A DNA stretch of 64,000 nt from a virus. Of the stretch, positions 2,911 through 64,000 are shown in pieces. The stretch lies in the IMG/VR virus record IMGVR_UViG_3300006098_000001. One strand, given 5' to 3'. Every line of letters starts with the position of its first letter. Positions within the stretch are counted from its first letter, which is position 1. A program made the translations under genes and the position numbers. The notes below the pieces were generated by a model. The model saw only the letters and a program-made list of their open reading frames with translations. It was not told the origin of the DNA and made no database searches.

Positions 2911-3135
2911 TTAGTGTTCGATACGTAGGCACCACCAGTAGTTATCAACTACCGCTTGATTGATTACGTCATACTCCCACAACTTGTTGAATGTAAAAAC
3001 TGCGATTGCGTCATTACATAAGCTCGCAATTCTAATACCCTTTTTGTCAGCTTTCGTTAAGACAAGTTCGATAAACTTATCAAGTTTCTTCTGGCTCGCT
3101 TTTGTCTTAAATTCATTCATTTTTATTTCCTCCAA
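2911..3135 (-). CDS. hypothetical early protein
   Basis: Track ORF; GGAGG RBS. Confidence 0.55.
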   Translation of the reverse strand: MEEIKMNEFKTKASQKKLDKFIELVLTKADKKGIRIASLCNDAIAVFTFNKLWEYDVINQAVVDNYWWCLRIEH

Positions 3136-5958: not shown

Positions 5959-6242
5959 GTTCCCACCCCCTTTCCTTAAGGGGTTAAAATAATTTAAACA
6001 TCGTTATTTCTGAAAGTCAATAATTGAAAAAGAAAAAGCCAAAACGCAAAAGTAAAAAACGTTAAGGCTTAAAGGCTTAAAAGCTTACATATTGAGGGAA
6101 CGTGGCGCCGTTCCCTTTTTGTATAATTATCATATCATACTTACAACCCTAACAGAATAGAAAAATAACACCCCTTTATTTTTCTATATAAGGAAGAAAA
6201 AACATAATAAAAAAACGATAAAGAAAAAAATAAATATACATG

Positions 6243-6898: not shown

Positions 6899-6949
6899 TA
6901 ATAGTAATTAGGGTAATGCGTTAGTGTTTAGCGTGTTGCCCTTTTGCAT

Positions 6950-8483: not shown

Positions 8484-9561
8484 GTATTATCAGTAAATAG
8501 ATACATATATCGCTTTATAGTACATTTTTATATTTATGTTCTTAATGCCATATACCTAATTATTCTGATTTATGAAAATATTGCGCACCCAAAATAGCCA
8601 TTTTTTGAAACAAAGAAAATTGCCTCTCGCTTTCATAACAATTATTTTCATAAAATTACTCAAAACTACCCTATTTTGCACCCAATAAAATCTTCGAAAC
8701 TCCCTATGAGGAATTCCTCAATTCACAAACTTTCGACTTCTACACAAACAACATTACTGAATTTAATTATACTTTGTGAATTTTTCTTCACTAATTCAAG
8801 AATTCAATTCTAAATAACTAAAATATGAACAAAAATTGTTATGAAAACATCGTTTTATGCATACCTAACTTATTTACGAAATAATCTGTCTTATTGTACA
8901 AAACTAAAAATTCATCATTCTTAATATTTCGCACCCTACTACTCATGTAACTAACCCTATCGAAACTCCCTATTTTTCATTTTGATATTTTTACTCAAAT
9001 CACTGAATTTTTAACCAAAAAAAATGAACTAATACCAAATCCTATTTAATAGGATCTAGTAGTACTTTTTTATAATTATTATTCACTTGAGACATTTATT
9101 AGTACATCTTCGATAATACAAGGGGTTTCAAACATCTAATTCCAGAAAATTTCACAAACTTAAAAAGGGTGCGGGGTATTTTTACTCTAATAACCTATAA
9201 TTATATGTTTCGTATTGGTTCATTATTTCCACTCAGACTATTTTTCATAATTCCGCCGCCATCTATCCATTGTAATAGGAAGAAAACCTCTATTTTCTAT
9301 CACTGCTTTTATTGTCGCTTGTGAAGTCATCAAAAAATGCTGTTTCATTTTTATGTAACTATTCTCGCCTTCTTTTTCTCTTTAAACACAGCCAAACACC
9401 AACGTAGAATGGAGTTAACGGGTCATAAATCAAAATTACATTAATTTATCTAAATCAGCTCTTAGCCCCATTATTCATTGTTCGTTTTGATTATTTATGA
9501 GCAATAATTATGTAGGTCAATTATTAAAACAGCTATTCCACAAGTTCCTTTAAATAAAAAA

Positions 9562-15101: not shown

Positions 15102-15848
15102 TTGATGAATCTAATCACGAAATACGATAGTTACAAAGAAGGATTGCCAAAAACAGAAATATATGGGATCGTTGACAAGAACATATTCCAAATCAATTTC
15201 GATCTTGAAGTTAATGATAAACTAACCTTTGACGAAATTAGCTTATTTATATATCTGTCTTATATGTCTTCACGAGCAACTATATATAATGGCAAGAGAA
15301 CAGTTATTGGCGCAGATGATGTAAGCCTATATAAACTAATTTATAAAACTAGTAAATTAGCAGGACGTTATCAGGAAAAAATTAGTAAAATCCACAAGTC
15401 ATTAAATCATCTTAAACGTCTTAGACTTATCAAATCGATGTTATACATAGACCGAGAAGATATTATTATACCTGATGTCGAAGATAACTATGGGAGGCTC
15501 TCCCCGGTAACGGTAGAATCAATTATTAAAATCTCTAAGGGCGACGCTTTATTAAAACATATTGGGGTGTATGCTGCTATGAAATCTACTGTTTATGCGG
15601 GAAGCACAAACACCTCTGTAGTTGAAAAAAATTCAAAATATATTGCCCATATGCTAAATACAACTAGTACAACTGTTGACCGACATCTTAAATGGCTGAG
15701 GGATAATAAACTAATTTGTTATTTTCTTTGTGCCTCAGAAAAAGGTACAGTTCGTAAATATTATTATGCCGATCTTCCTGATTGGGAAAATCTAAGAGAT
15801 AATATAAAGACAAAAATCAAAAGGGAACATATTCAATTAATTGCATAA
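15102..15848 (+). CDS. second winged-helix (RepA_N-like) DNA-binding protein
   Basis: Track ORF; LTFDEISLFIYLSYMS and two wHTH-like segments (ISKIHKSLNHLKRLRLIK, STTVDRHLKWLRDNKLI). Confidence 0.4.
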   Translation: MMNLITKYDSYKEGLPKTEIYGIVDKNIFQINFDLEVNDKLTFDEISLFIYLSYMSSRATIYNGKRTVIGADDVSLYKLIYKTSKLAGRYQEKISKIHKSLNHLKRLRLIKSMLYIDREDIIIPDVEDNYGRLSPVTVESIIKISKGDALLKHIGVYAAMKSTVYAGSTNTSVVEKNSKYIAHMLNTTSTTVDRHLKWLRDNKLICYFLCASEKGTVRKYYYADLPDWENLRDNIKTKIKREHIQLIA

Positions 15849-16752: not shown

Positions 16753-16781
16753 TTGCGTTTGTACCATTTTTCTTCGCGGTT
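16753..16781. repeat. IR-A: TTGCGTTTGTACCATT..TCTTCGCGGTT, inverted partner of 41846-41872
   Basis: 16-nt perfect reverse-complement match plus about 11 further matching positions with small indels. Confidence 0.6.
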
Positions 16782-16801
16782 GTTGCGAACCGCGGAGTTA
16801 T

Positions 16802-16843
16802 GAGGATTAAGGGTATTAGTCAGTTCGACTCTGACATATCCTC
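16802..16843 (+). other. T-arm-like hairpin (GTCAG-TTCGACT-CTGAC) closed by an outer GAGGAT/ATCCTC helix
   Basis: It has the same 7-nt TTCGACT loop as the two minihelices at 25951 and 30639. Confidence 0.35.
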
Positions 16844-16888
16844 ACCGTATAAAATAAACATTTTAACAAGAGAGCGAGAGAGAAAAAT

Positions 16889-17155
16889 ATGTTAAACAAG
16901 AAAGATTTAATTGAAATTATTGCAAAGCAACAAGAAACTACAAAGGTTGAAGCTAAGAAGATTGTGGAAGCCTTTACTGATGGTATCAAGTCAATTATGA
17001 AGGATAACAAGTCAGTAAACATTACAGGCTTTGCTAAGTTTGAAAGTAAGTACAAGGAAGCTTACAAGCGTGTGTTTGGTGTAACTGGTGAATTAATTGA
17101 AGTTCCAGCACATCACGTACACAAGGCAACTTTATCAAAGAAGATTGCTGAATAA
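16889..17155 (+). CDS. HU/IHF-family DNA-binding protein
   Basis: 88 aa with the typical MLNKKDLIEIIAKQ..TKVEAKKIVEAFTDGI..ITGFAKFE pattern. Confidence 0.75.
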   Translation: MLNKKDLIEIIAKQQETTKVEAKKIVEAFTDGIKSIMKDNKSVNITGFAKFESKYKEAYKRVFGVTGELIEVPAHHVHKATLSKKIAE

Positions 17156-21233: not shown

Positions 21234-22799
21234 TTGGCGAATAGACGCAGAAATATGCGAGGAAAACGACGCACCTATGAGCGAAATATAGCAGCTATCC
21301 GTAGAAGAAATGCTGAATATGCTTCTGTTTTAGCTGATCCAAAAAGTCGGTTTAAGCCAAGTACAAGTGCAGCGACCGAAAAAAGTAATATTAAGAGCTA
21401 CTTACAGAGACCTGCTGATAACTTTGCACAAATAGCGGCAACCTTACGGCAGGCATATTTAAACAGCGGAATTGTAAGCGGTGTCATAGACTATTACGTT
21501 GCTCATCCAACATATAATTATTCAATTTATCCTGTCTTGGGTAATAAGCAATATGCCATTGGTGGCAACATGCAAGAAGATTATATCGATGTGGCATATC
21601 AATTAAATTTATTGAATATAAATTATTGGGCACCAAAATTCTTTAAGGATACCTTGCTAGATGGGGTTACCTTTTATATCAAGATCGAAGATTCTACTGG
21701 AATAGCATATATGAAGCTCCCTCCTGAGTGGTGTCGTATTTCTAATTTAGAAAATGGAGTATATCGATTTAGAATCGACATTTCTAAATTAAAGCAAGAA
21801 CAATACGATGAACTACCTAATGAACTTCAGCAAGCTTACGACAAATATCATGGGAGCGGCATAAGCGACGATGACCAAGATTGGTATGACCGTAAATGGT
21901 ACCTGGTATCAGACGACGGTGTTGCTTTTACTTTTGACCATAATGCTATCAACAATGGTGGAACGGCGGTTTCTCCATTCGCAAGCGTATTGGCAGATAG
22001 TCTTTCCCTAGACGCTGCTAAAGACAATATTGATATAAAAGATAAGCTCGATACAGTACGACTAATTCATTCAAAAATACCAACTGACAGTAATGGGACA
22101 CCATCGTTAGATTTAAAGACAGCTCGTAATTTTGATGATCAAATGAGGTCAAGATTACCAGAAGGTGTTGTTGCTATTACTAGTCCTTCTTCATTGGACA
22201 ACATTCCTTTGAAAGGATCGGGTAATGAAGGAATTTACGATACTGTAAACAATGGATTAGAACAATTATTTTATGACCTGGGTATCAGCTCATCATTATT
22301 TGGTGGGAAAACTACGAGTTCTAACATCGTAAAAGAATCCGTTAAAAAGGACTCCAATTGGATTTATACAAACTTATTTCCGATGTTGGAAGCTTATTAC
22401 AACTTTGAACTTAGCCAGGTAAAAACGAAAAGTAAGATTCCGTGGAACTTGAAGTTCATTAGGGAATCAAACTTCACCTTAAAAGAAGATATTGCTAATT
22501 ATAAAGATCAACTTAGCTACGGTGGTTCAAGACTTGATTATTTGGCTTCTGTTGGATTTACACCAGATCAAATAATCTCTCAATTAACCTTTGAGCAACA
22601 AGCGCTTGATATTGATTCAATTATGGTTGTTAAGCCAACGTCAAATACCATATCAAGCAAAGAAGCCTCGACAGGTAGTGGGAAGACAATAGTTAAATCA
22701 CCTAATAGCAATATAAATAATCCAAATAAAGGCAACGTAGGACGACCAGAAACGGATAATCCAACTGATGACACTGATCGTTTGAGTGATGCCGCATAG
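21234..22799 (+). CDS. portal protein
   Basis: 521-aa ORF immediately after terL; size and position are typical. Confidence 0.6.
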   Translation: MANRRRNMRGKRRTYERNIAAIRRRNAEYASVLADPKSRFKPSTSAATEKSNIKSYLQRPADNFAQIAATLRQAYLNSGIVSGVIDYYVAHPTYNYSIYPVLGNKQYAIGGNMQEDYIDVAYQLNLLNINYWAPKFFKDTLLDGVTFYIKIEDSTGIAYMKLPPEWCRISNLENGVYRFRIDISKLKQEQYDELPNELQQAYDKYHGSGISDDDQDWYDRKWYLVSDDGVAFTFDHNAINNGGTAVSPFASVLADSLSLDAAKDNIDIKDKLDTVRLIHSKIPTDSNGTPSLDLKTARNFDDQMRSRLPEGVVAITSPSSLDNIPLKGSGNEGIYDTVNNGLEQLFYDLGISSSLFGGKTTSSNIVKESVKKDSNWIYTNLFPMLEAYYNFELSQVKTKSKIPWNLKFIRESNFTLKEDIANYKDQLSYGGSRLDYLASVGFTPDQIISQLTFEQQALDIDSIMVVKPTSNTISSKEASTGSGKTIVKSPNSNINNPNKGNVGRPETDNPTDDTDRLSDAA

Positions 22800-24960: not shown

Positions 24961-25944
24961 ATGGAAAAGAATGATTTTATGAAATTTGCTCGCGACCTCT
25001 ACTTCCACAAGGAATTTACAAAAGGCGAAGTTTCAGGTCAAGAAGCAATGCGTAACGCTATTTTAGATGCTCTTGGTGGCGAATTTACCCCAACTTCATG
25101 GGGCAAGAATAAATACGATGTTTTCGAATTGATTTCAGAAGCAGTTGATGCTGTTGTTCCACGTTTGTTAACTGATCAATTTGCAAACATTGCCGATGTT
25201 CGGACAGTTGCACTTGGTGAAAAACCAATTTTCCAAGTGAAAGATCCAAAGGCTATTCGAGTTGGTCGTGTAGCTGCTGGTGACCAAGACATTCGTCGGC
25301 AAACAATTAAGGATACTCATTACTCAATTGAAACAGAAGACTTTGGTGCATCTGTATATACAGAACTTCATCAATTCATGACTGGAACAGTTGATTGGAG
25401 CGACTTAATTGATCGGGTTGCGCAAGCTTTTACCAACCACATTCAAGCAACTATTGCAGAAGCCTTAAATGATAGTTACTCATTGCTTGACGCAACTGAC
25501 AAGATTACTGGTAAAGCAACTCTTGATCAAATTGTTAAGTTAGCAGAACGAATTCAAGTTAAGTCTAACAGTAATGTAGAAGTTTACGGCACTAAGGCTG
25601 CTTTAAGTAAATTAGCAGAAATGGCTAATGTGAACCTTTACTCAGGATCAATGAAAGATGAATTAAATCAAAAGGGCTACCTAGGTGTTGTGCGTGGCTT
25701 GAAGTTAAATGAAATTCCACAGGCATTTAAGGTTAATAAAGATGAGTTTGCCCTTGACGACAACAAGCTTTTGATCCTTCCAGAAGGTGAAAAGATTGTT
25801 GGTGTAGTCATGGAAGGTGACGCTATTACAGTTGAACCAGATTACACAGGACGTAATGATTTACAAATGGGCTTTAAGACGATCGAACGGATTGGAATTA
25901 TGGCTCTTCAAATGAAAGTGTACGGTATGGCCGACTTAGGCTAA
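24961..25944 (+). CDS. major capsid protein
   Basis: 327 aa with a strong RBS; position after the scaffold. Followed by a conserved RNA hairpin, as is the major tail gene. Confidence 0.6.
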   Translation: MEKNDFMKFARDLYFHKEFTKGEVSGQEAMRNAILDALGGEFTPTSWGKNKYDVFELISEAVDAVVPRLLTDQFANIADVRTVALGEKPIFQVKDPKAIRVGRVAAGDQDIRRQTIKDTHYSIETEDFGASVYTELHQFMTGTVDWSDLIDRVAQAFTNHIQATIAEALNDSYSLLDATDKITGKATLDQIVKLAERIQVKSNSNVEVYGTKAALSKLAEMANVNLYSGSMKDELNQKGYLGVVRGLKLNEIPQAFKVNKDEFALDDNKLLILPEGEKIVGVVMEGDAITVEPDYTGRNDLQMGFKTIERIGIMALQMKVYGMADLG

Positions 25945-25950
25945 TCGTTT

Positions 25951-25981
25951 AGCTGAATGGGGTTCGACTCCCTATTTAGTT
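25951..25981 (+). other. tRNA-like acceptor/T-arm minihelix, copy 1
   Basis: 12-bp stem (3 G-U pairs) with the 7-nt loop TTCGACT, 7 nt after the capsid stop. About 85 percent identical to 30639-30669. Confidence 0.55.
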
Positions 25982-26014
25982 GTAGTGACTAAGTACGAGA
26001 GAGAGGTTTTGAGA

Positions 26015-26578
26015 ATGTCACGTGAACAAAAGCGCCGGAAGCGCAAAATTATTGACCCCTCAACCGAAATAGTAGTGGCAAATAATACATATGGAATATT
26101 TGCTTATGAATCAAATAATGGGGCCCTTTCTTTTGTTTTGGAAGAAAACGGTGATGAAGAATATATCACATATGCCGAAGCAAGAAAGTTAAAGAAATAC
26201 TTTGAAAATATGTCTTTATTAATAATTGACGTCAACTCCGAGGAAGACATTTCAATTATGGATGTAGTTCGTGGATTGAGATTAACTGATGTTTATAAAT
26301 CATATCTTGAGCTAGTTGAAGGTTTCGAAGAAGACGAGTTTGACGAAGTAGAAGCGTTATATGCAGAGGCATTAGCAGATTTCTGCTTAGACTCTGAACT
26401 TGACGACTTCAAGAAGGCATTAAAAACACCTTTAAGAAACGCAGTTATTATGACGACTGTTGAAATGTATAAGCAACGGCGGTTATCTGATCGTGATAAA
26501 CAAGACCTTGTAAATACCAGAGGTGAAGACTTCTGGGCCGATATTGATGTATCGGTTCGTGCAGCAGAAGGTCGCTAA
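26015..26578 (+). CDS. hypothetical head-associated protein
   Basis: Track ORF 25985..26578; the ATG at 26015 after GAGAGG is the likelier start. Confidence 0.55.
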   Translation: MSREQKRRKRKIIDPSTEIVVANNTYGIFAYESNNGALSFVLEENGDEEYITYAEARKLKKYFENMSLLIIDVNSEEDISIMDVVRGLRLTDVYKSYLELVEGFEEDEFDEVEALYAEALADFCLDSELDDFKKALKTPLRNAVIMTTVEMYKQRRLSDRDKQDLVNTRGEDFWADIDVSVRAAEGR

Positions 26579-29526: not shown

Positions 29527-30633
29527 ATGTCTACTTATGGTTTGAAGGATGCGTCAAATATCACATTTGTAAAGCGTGGTACTACTACTCCCGTTTTATA
29601 CATTGATTACGCAAACCAAACAAATACTCAATGGCAATCTAACCGTGTATATGCCAAGAAGAAGGGTACACAAGCAATTGCATGGGACTCTGCACGGACT
29701 GGTAAGTTAACCATTCAAACTGAAATGTTTGATCTTCGGCTCTTAGCAATGATGGCCGGTGATGATGACTTACATAAGGGAACAAACACTATCTTTAAGC
29801 GAAAAGTATTCCAATTACGAGGAGATCGCTTAATTGATTTAGGCGCAAAGCCAGTTGAAGGTTCTGTATCTGTGTTCCGTGTAGACGACAAGGATAAGCG
29901 TGAACACATTACTGAAATCCCTATGTTAGTTTCTGGAGACGCTGGTTCAGTTCCACAAATGGTAACTGATGTTGCTGTTTCTGCCAAGGATACAACTGCA
30001 ACAATTACTTGGAGTTCTACAGCCAATGCAACTAGTTATGTTGTTTACCGAAATGGAGTAGCTACTGGATACCCTGTTGGTACTTCATTTAACGACTCAA
30101 ACTTAACTCCTGAAACAGAATACAAGTACACAGTTGTTGCTAAGAATGAGGCAGGACAATCAGTTCAATCTGCTGAAGTAGTTATTACTACTGCTACATC
30201 AGGTACTAAAGAGGCCGGCGCTGCTGTTAAGGCAACTGAAGATGCAATCAAGAAGGCACAAGAAAATGCTAGTGGGGCCAACTTAAATGGCTTGTACTTC
30301 AAGATGACTGATGGTGGAAACGGAATTCAACTTTCTGATGAAGCCGTTGTCGGTGCTGCTTACGCAGTGTACTACGTTGTAAAGCAAGACGGTGTATCTT
30401 CCTACACTATCAATGCACTTAAGTTTGCAACTAACTACGAAATTTACGCCGATGCCGTAATTCGTTCCCAAGACGGTGAAGATAAGTTTGCGCAAATTCA
30501 CTTTACTAATGTAAAGCCCGCTGCAAATGTAACATTCAACCAAAACTCAGAACAAGTAACTTCCCTTTCATTAGAATTTGACTTGTTAGCTGATGAAAAT
30601 AACGACCAAGCTATTTACGAATACATCGAATAG
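29527..30633 (+). CDS. major tail protein with internal fibronectin type III-like domain
   Basis: Position. The segment TATITWSSTANATSYVVYRNG...EYKYTVVAKNEAGQS is a typical FN3 signature. Confidence 0.55.
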   Translation: MSTYGLKDASNITFVKRGTTTPVLYIDYANQTNTQWQSNRVYAKKKGTQAIAWDSARTGKLTIQTEMFDLRLLAMMAGDDDLHKGTNTIFKRKVFQLRGDRLIDLGAKPVEGSVSVFRVDDKDKREHITEIPMLVSGDAGSVPQMVTDVAVSAKDTTATITWSSTANATSYVVYRNGVATGYPVGTSFNDSNLTPETEYKYTVVAKNEAGQSVQSAEVVITTATSGTKEAGAAVKATEDAIKKAQENASGANLNGLYFKMTDGGNGIQLSDEAVVGAAYAVYYVVKQDGVSSYTINALKFATNYEIYADAVIRSQDGEDKFAQIHFTNVKPAANVTFNQNSEQVTSLSLEFDLLADENNDQAIYEYIE

Positions 30634-30638
30634 CTATT

Positions 30639-30669
30639 AGCTGGATGGGGTTCGACTCCCCATTCAGCT
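30639..30669 (+). other. tRNA-like acceptor/T-arm minihelix, copy 2
   Basis: Continuous 12-bp stem AGCTGGATGGGG/CCCCATTCAGCT with T-loop TTCGACT, 6 nt after the tail gene stop. Confidence 0.6.
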
Positions 30670-30722
30670 TTCAACTAAGTAGATTAAATTAATCCATTTA
30701 TACGGTTATGAATGGACAGAAA

Positions 30723-30748
30723 GTCCGAAACCTCGGGCTTTATTTTTT
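30723..30748 (+). terminator. rho-independent terminator
   Basis: GTCCGA/TCGGGC stem followed by TTTATTTTTT. Confidence 0.55.
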
Positions 30749-61991: not shown

Positions 61992-62170
61992 TCTGGGTCG
62001 GCCAAAGAATCGCTGCATAACATATTCGTTTGTAAAACATGGGTTTTATAAACTTTAGGGAATGTGTAGACTCAATGTCTACGCATTTTCATACATAAAT
62101 ATATTTATACTAATCCACCGATTGGTAATTAAGGAGGAAAAATTAATTACTCATGAGGTGAAATAAAGAT

Positions 62171-64000
62171 ATGAGATATTTAACAACATATCTTGACGAT
62201 GAAATTAATTTCAAGTTTGGCAATAATGGCTCAATCATTGAGTTGAAAGCTGTTGATGACCATGCGGTTATGAGTTTCTCAAACGAAGAAAAACTCCTCA
62301 TTCGTATTAAGAATGAGGAATCATATATCAAAACGGTGCCCGTTACTGCCGAACGTAAGATTATTCAACTCCCTACCAAGTTATTAAAAGACCTAACGGT
62401 AGGTCAGTACGATGTTGAGTTATGGCAAGGCGAAGGTGACGATCAAGTTATCTATCCTGACGAAGGATTCCTTAGATTAAAGATTCATGGCAACGCATCA
62501 CAAATTGATGGTAGCTTGGTTTCTTCTATTACTCTTGCTGATTTTGAAAAGAAGTTTAATGAACTAGCTCAAAAGATTGAGGATAAATTAGAGAAATTAC
62601 CAGATATCGATGGGAAGAATATTAGCATCGATGTGAAAGTAGTTGATGGCAACCTTTGTATTAACGGCAAAGATACAGGAATTAACCTAACTGCCAAGGA
62701 TGGTAGGGACGGAAGAGATGGACATACGCCAGAAATCACTGTATCAGATGCAGGTACACTTGTTGTTGATGGAATTGACACTAATAAATCTTTAATCGGT
62801 CCTAGAGGTGAGAATGGACTTCCGGGTAAGGATGGAGTTGCTGGTCAAGATGGTAAATCTGCCTATCAAGTAGCTGTCGATAATGGGTTTGATGGGACAG
62901 AAGTCGAATGGTTACGCTCATTGCATGGAAATGATGGCCTTGATGGAAAGTCAGGTAGAGACGGACTTCCAGGACAGAGTGGTAAATCTGCCTATGAGAT
63001 AGCTATCGCAAACGGGTTTATGGGAACTGAAACTGAATGGCTAGAATCCCTCAAAGGTAAGGATGGGCGAGATGGTAATGACGCTAATGTCGATTTATCT
63101 GAATTCTTAACTAAAGAAACTGCGAATTCAGAATATGCTAAAAAGAATGATGTTCCTCTTATCGTATATGATGCAGAAAACAATACTCTAACTATCAATG
63201 GTCAAAAGGTAGAAATACCTTCTCAAGTAGATTTGTCTAGTTATGTTACCAAGACTGATGCAGATAAATATGCTTTAAAATCTGATGTAAAGAATATTGT
63301 CCTTGATAAAAATGAAAGAACTTTAACTGTTGGAAAAGAATCAATTAATATTCCTAATAATATTGACCTTTCTCCTTATTACACTAAAGAAGAAATTGAT
63401 AAGAAGTTAACTGACATTGCGACAAATGGAAAGGTTGACCTTACTGGTTATCTTAGACAGAGTGATTTAACGGATTACGCTAAGAAATCAGATATCCCAA
63501 GTCAACCAGACCTTACTCCATATGCTAAAAAGTCAGAGCTACCCAAGATTTCAATAGACGTTGAGAAACGAACGCTTACTTTAAACGATAGTGTTATCAA
63601 TATTCCAGATAGTGTTGACTTAACTGACTATGCTAAAAAATCAGAAATTCCAAGTATCGTATTAGACACGGAAACTAATACCCTAACCATTAACGGAACA
63701 AAAGTAGTTATTCCAGGTAATGTTGACCTCACTCATTACTACACTAAAGGAGAAATTGATGAAAAAATAGCTGATATTCAATCTGGCGGAAAAATTGATT
63801 TAAGTAATTATGTCAATAAGCAAGAACTTTCTGATTATGCTAAGAAAGCAGATATTCCTGAAACGCCTGACTTAACTCCTTATGAGACTAAAGAGAATGC
63901 AGATAAGACTTATGCTACTAAGAAAGCGTTGGAAGATATTCAACTCACTCCCGGAAAAGATGGGAAGAATGGTAAGTCTGCTTATGATTTGGCGGTAGAA
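62171..64000 (+). CDS. collagen-like / tandem-repeat fibre protein; C-terminus beyond the right edge
   Basis: ATG 9 nt after GAGGTG. My reading is open for all 610 codons to the window end. It has Gly-X-Y runs (GPRGENGLPGKDGVAGQDGKS), two GKSAY..A..NGF.GTE.EWL.SL motifs, and then about 45-aa repeats (VDL..Y..K.E.../TLTINGxKVxIP). Absent from the track because there is no stop. Confidence 0.6.
   Translation, partial: MRYLTTYLDDEINFKFGNNGSIIELKAVDDHAVMSFSNEEKLLIRIKNEESYIKTVPVTAERKIIQLPTKLLKDLTVGQYDVELWQGEGDDQVIYPDEGFLRLKIHGNASQIDGSLVSSITLADFEKKFNELAQKIEDKLEKLPDIDGKNISIDVKVVDGNLCINGKDTGINLTAKDGRDGRDGHTPEITVSDAGTLVVDGIDTNKSLIGPRGENGLPGKDGVAGQDGKSAYQVAVDNGFDGTEVEWLRSLHGNDGLDGKSGRDGLPGQSGKSAYEIAIANGFMGTETEWLESLKGKDGRDGNDANVDLSEFLTKETANSEYAKKNDVPLIVYDAENNTLTINGQKVEIPSQVDLSSYVTKTDADKYALKSDVKNIVLDKNERTLTVGKESINIPNNIDLSPYYTKEEIDKKLTDIATNGKVDLTGYLRQSDLTDYAKKSDIPSQPDLTPYAKKSELPKISIDVEKRTLTLNDSVINIPDSVDLTDYAKKSEIPSIVLDTETNTLTINGTKVVIPGNVDLTHYYTKGEIDEKIADIQSGGKIDLSNYVNKQELSDYAKKADIPETPDLTPYETKENADKTYATKKALEDIQLTPGKDGKNGKSAYDLAVE

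Follow-up and report, generated by a model that had tools for sequence, protein, structure and literature searches.

The locus analysed here raises the question of why a structure resembling part of a tRNA should stand directly behind two structural genes of a phage. The earlier note on this DNA had described a 31-nt hairpin with a 12-bp stem and the loop TTCGACT just past the gene for the probable major capsid protein, and a similar element after the major tail gene; the window, by which is meant the whole 64,000-nucleotide stretch that was analysed, indeed bears both (Table 1). The stop codon TAA of the capsid ORF (25942-25944) is followed by 6 bases, TCGTTT, and then by the hairpin, in which 3 of the 12 pairs are G-U and a 13th pair, U-G, is possible. 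The tail copy begins 5 nt past the stop of the ORF at 29527-30633, with T30670 in the place of the discriminator and T30671 in that of U74. The identity of the capsid gene rests on annotated homologues and precomputed Pfam matches; the 327-aa protein is ~30% identical to annotated major capsid proteins of Tsamsa/Thrax-like Bacillus phages (tblastn), a structure prediction from its single sequence reached a pLDDT of 38 and was of no use, and a profile search of the PDB with it gave no match.

Table 1. Positions of the two minihelices, their neighbours and a third tRNA-like element in the window
Feature	Positions	Strand	Basis or detail
Third tRNA-like element, upstream of HU gene (16889-17155)	16801-16844	+	7-bp acceptor-like stem TGAGGAT/ATCCTCA
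Probable major capsid protein gene, SPbeta YonB-type, 327 aa	24961-25944	+	PF27364 YonB (precomputed Pfam), phrog_4088, annotated homologues
Capsid-copy minihelix AGCTGAATGGGG-TTCGACT-CCCTATTTAGTT	25951-25981	+	sequence, folding, alignment; covariance-model match 52.1 bits
Acceptor-like strands of capsid copy	5' 25951-25957; 3' 25975-25981	+	
T stem and T loop of capsid copy	stem 25958-25962 / 25970-25974; loop 25963-25969	+	loop TTCGACT
3' flank of capsid copy	25982-25989	+	discriminator-like G25982; U74-equivalent T25983; A; GTGAC 25985-25989
Next gene, 187 aa	26015-26578	+	N-terminus MSR...
Tail tube protein gene, 368 aa, upstream of second copy	29527-30633	+	PF27173 YomU_Tube, fn3 insert, phrog_2729, phrog_7440
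Tail-copy minihelix AGCTGGATGGGG-TTCGACT-CCCCATTCAGCT	30639-30669	+	AGCTGGA-TGGGG-TTCGACT-CCCCA-TTCAGCT; covariance-model match 52.4 bits
Second hairpin of tail-gene 3' UTR, TCCATTTATA-CGGT-TATGAATGGA	30693-30716	+	kept in L. reuteri, L018 and L019 lineages
Canonical intrinsic terminator AAAGTCCG...CGGGCTTT, then T run	30720-30748	+	ends capsid-to-tail-tube transcription unit

The two copies match at 27/31 bases (87%), close to the 85% first estimated, and their four stem differences are all switches between G-U and Watson-Crick pairs. Since the G of these switches is on the 5' strand, the proposal that the element acts as RNA in the sense orientation holds; on folding, the plus strand of the capsid copy gave a z score of -2.1 against shuffled sequences and the minus strand one of -0.18. 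The sequence GGGGTTCGACTCCC is found twice in the window where 0.08 occurrences are expected, and hairpins with a 12-bp stem and a 7-nt loop number 7 on the two strands together against a mean of 1.3 in Markov simulations. Others of this geometry, at 6157-6187, 6911-6941, 62059-62089 and 62292-62322, are without a T loop and look like ordinary terminators or palindromes.

A shared ACTAAGTA that had been noticed downstream is present after both helices, but it starts 6 and 4 nt past them (25988 and 30674) and not 8 and 6. As a part of the element it has to be given up: it is not enriched in the window (5 found, 2.4 expected), and in relatives it is not kept after the tail copy. Its occurrence beside both window copies is put down to recent exchange between them. 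In strain YLR001 (L012) the tail copy (15151-15200) bears the 3' strand and flank of the capsid copy (8991-9040), TTTAGCT GTAGTGACTAAG; the copies therefore recombine (gene conversion; they are 6 kb apart there).

The element is not a tRNA gene. ARAGORN found 0 tRNA genes in the window and there was no match to RF00005 even at E values up to 10; Rfam 15 as a whole returned 0 matches at the gathering score, and in a permissive search both hairpins matched the T arm of tmRNA only, at 12.8 and 10.5 bits where 47 are required. The D and anticodon arms are missing, as the earlier note had it: the 5' acceptor strand directly adjoins the T stem and there is no cloverleaf. In the L. salivarius copy (L014) ARAGORN does call a 'tRNA-Tyr' (8957-9034), which was rejected; it overlaps the 3' end of the capsid CDS and its minimum-energy fold is the minihelix. 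This false positive is driven by the T arm and could spread via automated annotation. Several other candidates were also discarded. A viral 3' TLS does not agree with an element that is internal to the operon of a DNA phage, encodes no CCA and forms a simple helix without a pseudoknot. A 12-bp helix is too short for RNase III, and an RNase III site was ruled out on this ground. An intrinsic terminator was rejected for the window copies, neither of which is followed by a T run: their flanks, GTAGTGAC and TTCAACTA, hold no U tract, and a terminator scan gave an artefactual 5-bp reading only. Finally, for a reading as a small-RNA gene, no sigma-70-like promoter was found ahead of either hairpin (near 25900-25990 or 30600-30640).

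Close relatives of the capsid gene are carried by plasmids of ~110-140 kb in Limosilactobacillus reuteri (LN906635 p53608_1, CP065541, CP102426), L. mucosae and Ligilactobacillus salivarius (pMP1046B, published as a putative 'chromid'; PMC4165912), and by a contig of L. ingluviei; more distant ones were found in Liquorilactobacillus mali, Vagococcus, Bacillus, Clostridioides and Clostridium. Plasmid CP065541, which is complete, combines repA, RepC and ParM genes and toxin-antitoxin pairs with the full SPbeta-like virion module (terminase, portal, YonD, YonB, YomX, YomW, YomU and tape-measure protein) and, judged by this gene content, is a phage-plasmid; the window, too, is ascribed to a phage-plasmid of L. 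reuteri. The hairpin stands after the capsid gene in every Lactobacillaceae relative with a capsid protein at least 55% identical, and also after the tail-tube gene in the L. reuteri lineages, in lineages with ~67% capsid identity and in L. mucosae; it starts 4-30 nt past the stop codons of the two genes.

From these phage-plasmids (group 1) 20 distinct variants were placed in a gapless alignment (A2). It is clear from this that the helix is maintained: 95% of stem cells pair, double (compensatory) changes occur at 9/12 pairs, and the covariation score of 0.686, against 0.240 in shuffles, was reached by 0/500 of these, while control structures slid by 1-3 columns pair at 45-59%. The stem sequence can be fully replaced among relatives (e.g. 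L. salivarius ACATGATAAAGG...CCTTTGTCATGT); the positions fixed in this group are G52, G53, U54, U55, C56, G57, A58, (C/U)59, U60, C61 and C62. The helix is 12 bp long in nearly all variants, a 13th pair being impossible in 15/20, and a single bulge is seen in two, those of L. ingluviei (L008) and of the L019 tail copy; the tail copy of L. mucosae (L007) has the loop TGCAACT, without U55. A covariance model built from A2 finds only two copies in the window and, likewise, over the full 132 kb of the plasmid, where the runner-up is the T arm of tmRNA at 21.8 bits; with just these two copies a dispersed repeat of the REP/BOX kind was also rejected.

The earlier note had proposed a search of related phages, and in these the minihelix is kept with covariation even where the capsid is only 55% identical. 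The distant relatives have ordinary hairpins after the capsid gene. In two of them, from Bacillus velezensis and B. wiedmannii (L015, ~8990-9060, and L017, ~8975-9050), a near-consensus promoter is also seen past the capsid gene, with TTGAAA, a spacer of 17 nt and TATTAT or TATAAT, and a long hairpin overlaps or directly succeeds it. With ordinary hairpins and a Bacillus promoter at the same site, an RNA boundary there seems to be ancestral, with the T-loop minihelix apparently the means by which particular lineages make it.

A second carrier was found in a pattern scan of viral contigs, which returned mainly true tRNAs and, besides these, one 12-bp T-loop minihelix in a prophage contig of ~49 kb, between the gene for a major tail protein of 171 aa (phrog_158), which ends 6 nt upstream of it, and that for the tail chaperone. 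Relatives of this tail protein include the published Lactobacillus prophage Lj965 of L. johnsonii NCC533 (L192, NC_005355), where an unannotated minihelix lies between Ljo_0319 and Ljo_0320 (2962-3040). These Lj965-like temperate siphophages (group 2, L156-L184) are unrelated to the phage-plasmids and have the minihelix at the junction of major tail protein and tail chaperone genes; they add 12 distinct variants, all of 12 bp, with the loop TTCGATT or TTCGAGT and a 13th pair impossible in 11/12. Some of the prophages come from the same genomes as phage-plasmids. Further, the flank TTTAGTGAC of the L156 subgroup is common to the group-1 capsid copies, which suggests an exchange of modules.

In the combined alignment (A3; 32 distinct variants, 20 of group 1 and 12 of group 2) 97.4% of cells pair and 10/12 pairs are compensated, with a covariation score of 0.868 versus 0.283 in shuffles (0/500 reach it) and pairing of 44-55% in slid controls; the 32 variants are phylogenetically related and such raw counts overstate their independence. 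Of the 384 cells, 374 pair on the sense strand and 319 on the antisense strand. The structure is maintained by selection and is not decaying. Nothing of the kind is annotated in Lj965 or in the plasmids, and the literature searched gave no report of such an element in phages, or of the principle for structural-gene mRNAs of phages or bacteria. When the 52-nt region was searched against 50,697 genomes of isolated phages, only T-arm-sized matches were returned. One further stand-alone 12-bp T-loop minihelix, CCTGCCGAGGGG TTCGATT CCTCTTGGCAGG followed by A and U, was seen in IMGVR_UViG_3300020004_000026 (L100, 1376-1406, minus strand), 7 nt past an SSB-like gene of a high-GC phage; it is not kept in four relatives and may be a chance occurrence.

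The alignments bear directly on two other explanations. The hairpin could be the decaying remnant of a tRNA gene, without present function, and the earlier note had named such a remnant, without conservation elsewhere, as the finding that would overturn its proposal. True tRNA arrays do lie near the HU gene, in the same genome region, in the Bacillus and Vagococcus relatives, and the 'tRNA-Tyr' of ARAGORN runs across the L. salivarius copy. However, that call overlaps capsid coding sequence, and decay does not agree with compensation at 10/12 pairs, with a loop that is invariant over lineages of 55-99% capsid identity or with recurrence in a second phage group; the conservation with covariation largely refutes a remnant, which we regard as very improbable. 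Alternatively, the DNA itself could matter, be it a palindrome bound by a protein, a hot spot of recombination or a module boundary, as might be read from the recombining copies of L012 and from the group-1 flank of the L156 subgroup. We find this scarcely credible: G-U pairs make up 15% of cells, nearly always with the G on the 5' strand, so that the other strand pairs at 83%, and the arms of the duplex are not a true palindrome.

What the variants share is an acceptor/T-arm mimic, as first proposed, of 7 + 5 bp with a canonical T loop closed by G53-C61. The signature G53-U54-U55-C56-G57-A58-N-U60-C61 is essentially invariant over the 32 variants, which thus have the 5-bp stem and 7-nt loop UUCRANY of a T arm; C61-C62 is (near-)invariant too. 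Position 74, two bases past the helix, is U in 32/32 variants of A3, and no variant has C there. A or U is found at position 75 in 30/32, U at -1 in 22/32 and a purine at +1 in 31/32 (A in 23), and the pair 1-72 is A-U in 20 and G-U in 8. These features agree with what is known of RNase Z in B. subtilis, which cuts CCA-less precursors after the discriminator. The same enzyme contacts the T arm and acceptor stem only (PMC7479834); a U no more than 2 nt past the discriminator stimulates it ~200-fold (PMC10100781), and C74 inhibits it (PMC7479834, PMC1874595). RNase P measures the T stem-loop stacked on the acceptor stem, for which the T loop is needed and the D loop is not (PMC4919913).

A tRNA-like fold as a signal for RNA processing is already known from organelles and from MALAT1. 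A close likeness is to the t-elements of plant mitochondria (Forner et al. 2007), which define mRNA ends via RNase P and RNase Z and were found by a screen for GGTTCRANYCC; their cutting by the two enzymes was proposed and partly shown, and the excised form can gain non-templated C residues (PMC1920247). They too have a T-arm motif and an acceptor-like stem beside mRNA ends in longer transcripts. The minihelix contains this motif, as GGTTCGACTCC, within a 7-bp outer stem, and it stands at a coding-region boundary inside a longer transcript. t-elements differ in being organellar and usually imperfect cloverleaves, and there is no common descent; the minihelix is a bare helix of 12 bp from a phage in a bacterium, with cleavage that is predicted. 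The laboratory minihelices used as substrates of RNase P, RNase Z and the CCA-adding enzyme have the same 12-bp acceptor/T stack with no D or anticodon arm, but these are constructs, whereas the phage element is natural and conserved, lies within an mRNA that extends far to its 5' and 3' sides, and encodes no CCA. In mascRNA/MALAT1 and in mitochondrial tRNA punctuation a tRNA or tRNA-like fold in a long transcript likewise is the cleavage signal that makes the ends of its neighbours; unlike the phage minihelix both are eukaryotic, mascRNA being a cloverleaf and punctuation using functional tRNAs.

From the conserved bases, and by analogy with these systems, we take as the best explanation, at about even odds, that the minihelix is a tRNA mimic which would recruit RNase P and/or RNase Z to define transcript ends. 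Host tRNA end-processing enzymes would then handle the minihelix, which in the late polycistronic mRNA directly follows the genes of the most abundant virion proteins, like a pre-tRNA: a cut by RNase P would fall 5' of A1 and one by RNase Z, which U74 would activate, behind the discriminator N73, and the CCA-adding enzyme might extend the new 3' end. The outcome would be a defined transcript end adjoining, or capped by, a stable 12-bp helix, and the fate of the capsid and tail-tube messages would be uncoupled from that of the downstream genes. Several points count against processing, among them the L007 loop without U55 and the two bulged variants. B. subtilis RNase Z is poor with long 5' extensions (PMC1874595); cleavage by RNase P would therefore have to come first, and the capsid message would lose its protective 3' hairpin, an odd arrangement for the most abundant mRNA. 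Further, most group-2 helices are followed by TTTTT(T)AT, and these copies have the hairpin and U tract of a terminator, of which their U74 could simply be a part; termination or 3' protection therefore stays an alternative or additional role.

In this alternative a plain stem-loop at the 3' side would stop 3'-to-5' exonucleases, terminate part of the transcription, or do both; its T loop would be only a compact stable cap from a tRNA ancestor, and no tRNA enzyme would take part. Levels of capsid and tail-tube mRNA would thereby rise against those of the genes downstream. Such a stem-loop, which we think possible but unlikely, would agree with the ordinary hairpins at the same site in distant relatives, with the TTTTT(T)AT of group 2 and with the two further hairpins in the 3' UTR of the tail copy. 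It would also agree with the ordinary canonical terminator that the related Oenococcus phage Krappator27 has at the same junction of tail protein and chaperone genes; siphophage terminators and attenuators of this sort share with the minihelix the site, the presumed purpose of more message for an abundant protein and, in group 2, the U tract. They have, however, no T-loop consensus, fixed 12 bp or A1-U72, and the stem-loop leaves unexplained the invariant U54, U55, C56, G57, A58 and U60, the exact 12 bp, the A1-U72 pair and a U74 that occurs without a U tract in 19/20 group-1 variants. Moreover, neither window copy is followed by a T run, and for the tail copy a strong terminator, separate from the minihelix, is already there. 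Between this terminator and the tail minihelix the hairpin at 30693-30716 has 10 bp and the loop CGGU, and it shows at least one compensatory change in L001.

The mimicry of tRNA finds a likely source in the phage-plasmid itself. CP065541, the closest complete phage-plasmid, has a region of 9 tRNAs (Rfam) and a tmRNA (76 bits, tag ANNHRVTALAA), which lies outside the window (L035 21794-26590; NZ_CP065541.1 ~121.8-126.6 kb); it also has orphan T arms that no tool calls tRNA, e.g. at 21978, 24119, 24648 and 26301 of L035. A tmRNA on a phage-plasmid is unusual. Six of the tRNAs were read by hand, and 6/6 are CCA-less with U74 and U(-1); the pair 1-72 of the six is three times A-U and once each A.C, U-A and G-C. 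In the tmRNA the T loop reads TTCGACT, as in the minihelix, and the tRNAs have in common with the minihelix U(-1), mostly A1-U72, U74 and the missing CCA; unlike them the minihelix has no D arm, anticodon arm or variable region and cannot decode. Since the minihelices have the peculiarities of the phage-plasmid tRNAs, they most likely follow the same maturation pathway and probably derive from the plasmid's own CCA-less tRNAs.

A third tRNA-like element, upstream of the HU gene, joins its acceptor-like stem by an 11-nt linker to a 5-bp T arm with the loop TTCGACT; position 74 is C, unlike in the minihelices. It is kept with compensatory changes in L. mucosae (L007, ~651) and in L019 (~924). 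A GC-rich hairpin precedes it at 16776-16797.

The same conserved bases could instead serve some other reader of T arms (TruB, a U54 methyltransferase, the CCA-adding enzyme or a phage protein), or the excised minihelix could itself be the product, as a small RNA made in abundance late in infection that acts in trans, e.g. by luring away defence toxins that hit tRNA acceptor ends or by competing for tRNA enzymes. We judge this improbable. The invariant bases are those read in tRNA by T-loop-modifying enzymes, as is known for the minimal substrates of TruB and TrmA. The phage-plasmid is also rich in tRNA biology, with its 9 tRNAs, tmRNA and further T-arm fragments, and a by-product RNA would be made in the largest amounts from a site after the genes with the highest expression. 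Against this, no candidate partner gene adjoins the elements, the acceptor-stem sequence is free to vary so that no sequence-specific identity is encoded, and a role in trans would still require the cleavages of the main model. In its most specific form, which we would call a long shot, RNase P and RNase Z would excise the minihelix, which would receive a CCA tail and perhaps modifications at U54/U55 and accumulate in abundance late in infection, as a tRNA half-molecule of ~35 nt acting in trans. It could be a decoy for host defence toxins of tRNA acceptor ends, such as AbiEii/MenT-type nucleotidyltransferases, which are common in lactic acid bacteria, or a tRNA-enzyme sponge that reshapes host translation; if so, the site behind the two most transcribed genes would be a production strategy.

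If, as in the processing model, the enzymes cut here, phages of Gram-positive bacteria would punctuate their late operons by tRNA mimicry. RNase P in B. subtilis is considered to have almost no direct mRNA targets. An element of 31 nt with clear mutable determinants (loop, stem length and U74), present in a published prophage and in common L. reuteri phage-plasmids, makes the model directly testable. The minihelix is an unannotated, covarying RNA motif that could enter RNA family databases, and it may offer a compact, portable module for RNA processing or 3' ends in the engineering of lactobacilli.

The gap between the capsid copy and the next gene is ~30 nt, with GAGAGAGAGG, the ribosome-binding site of the 187-aa gene, ~15 nt past the element. 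The GTGAC at 25985-25989, which is kept after capsid copies in four lineages, is complementary to GTCAC at 26017-26021, overlapping codons 1-3 of the next gene (ATGTCACG); in these four lineages the two could form a weak stem around the ribosome-binding site. The pairing is absent in L. salivarius, and in the L156 subgroup of group 2 despite its GTGAC, and there is no covariation. In L002, L003, L012 and L027 a gene for an IS605-type TnpB (RNA-guided endonuclease) lies right after ...ACGAGAGAGA, between minihelix and next gene (e.g. L012 9180-10355); some L. reuteri relatives thus have one and the window is without it. A link of the hairpin to the IS605/TnpB element was rejected, the hairpin being there with or without the insertion.
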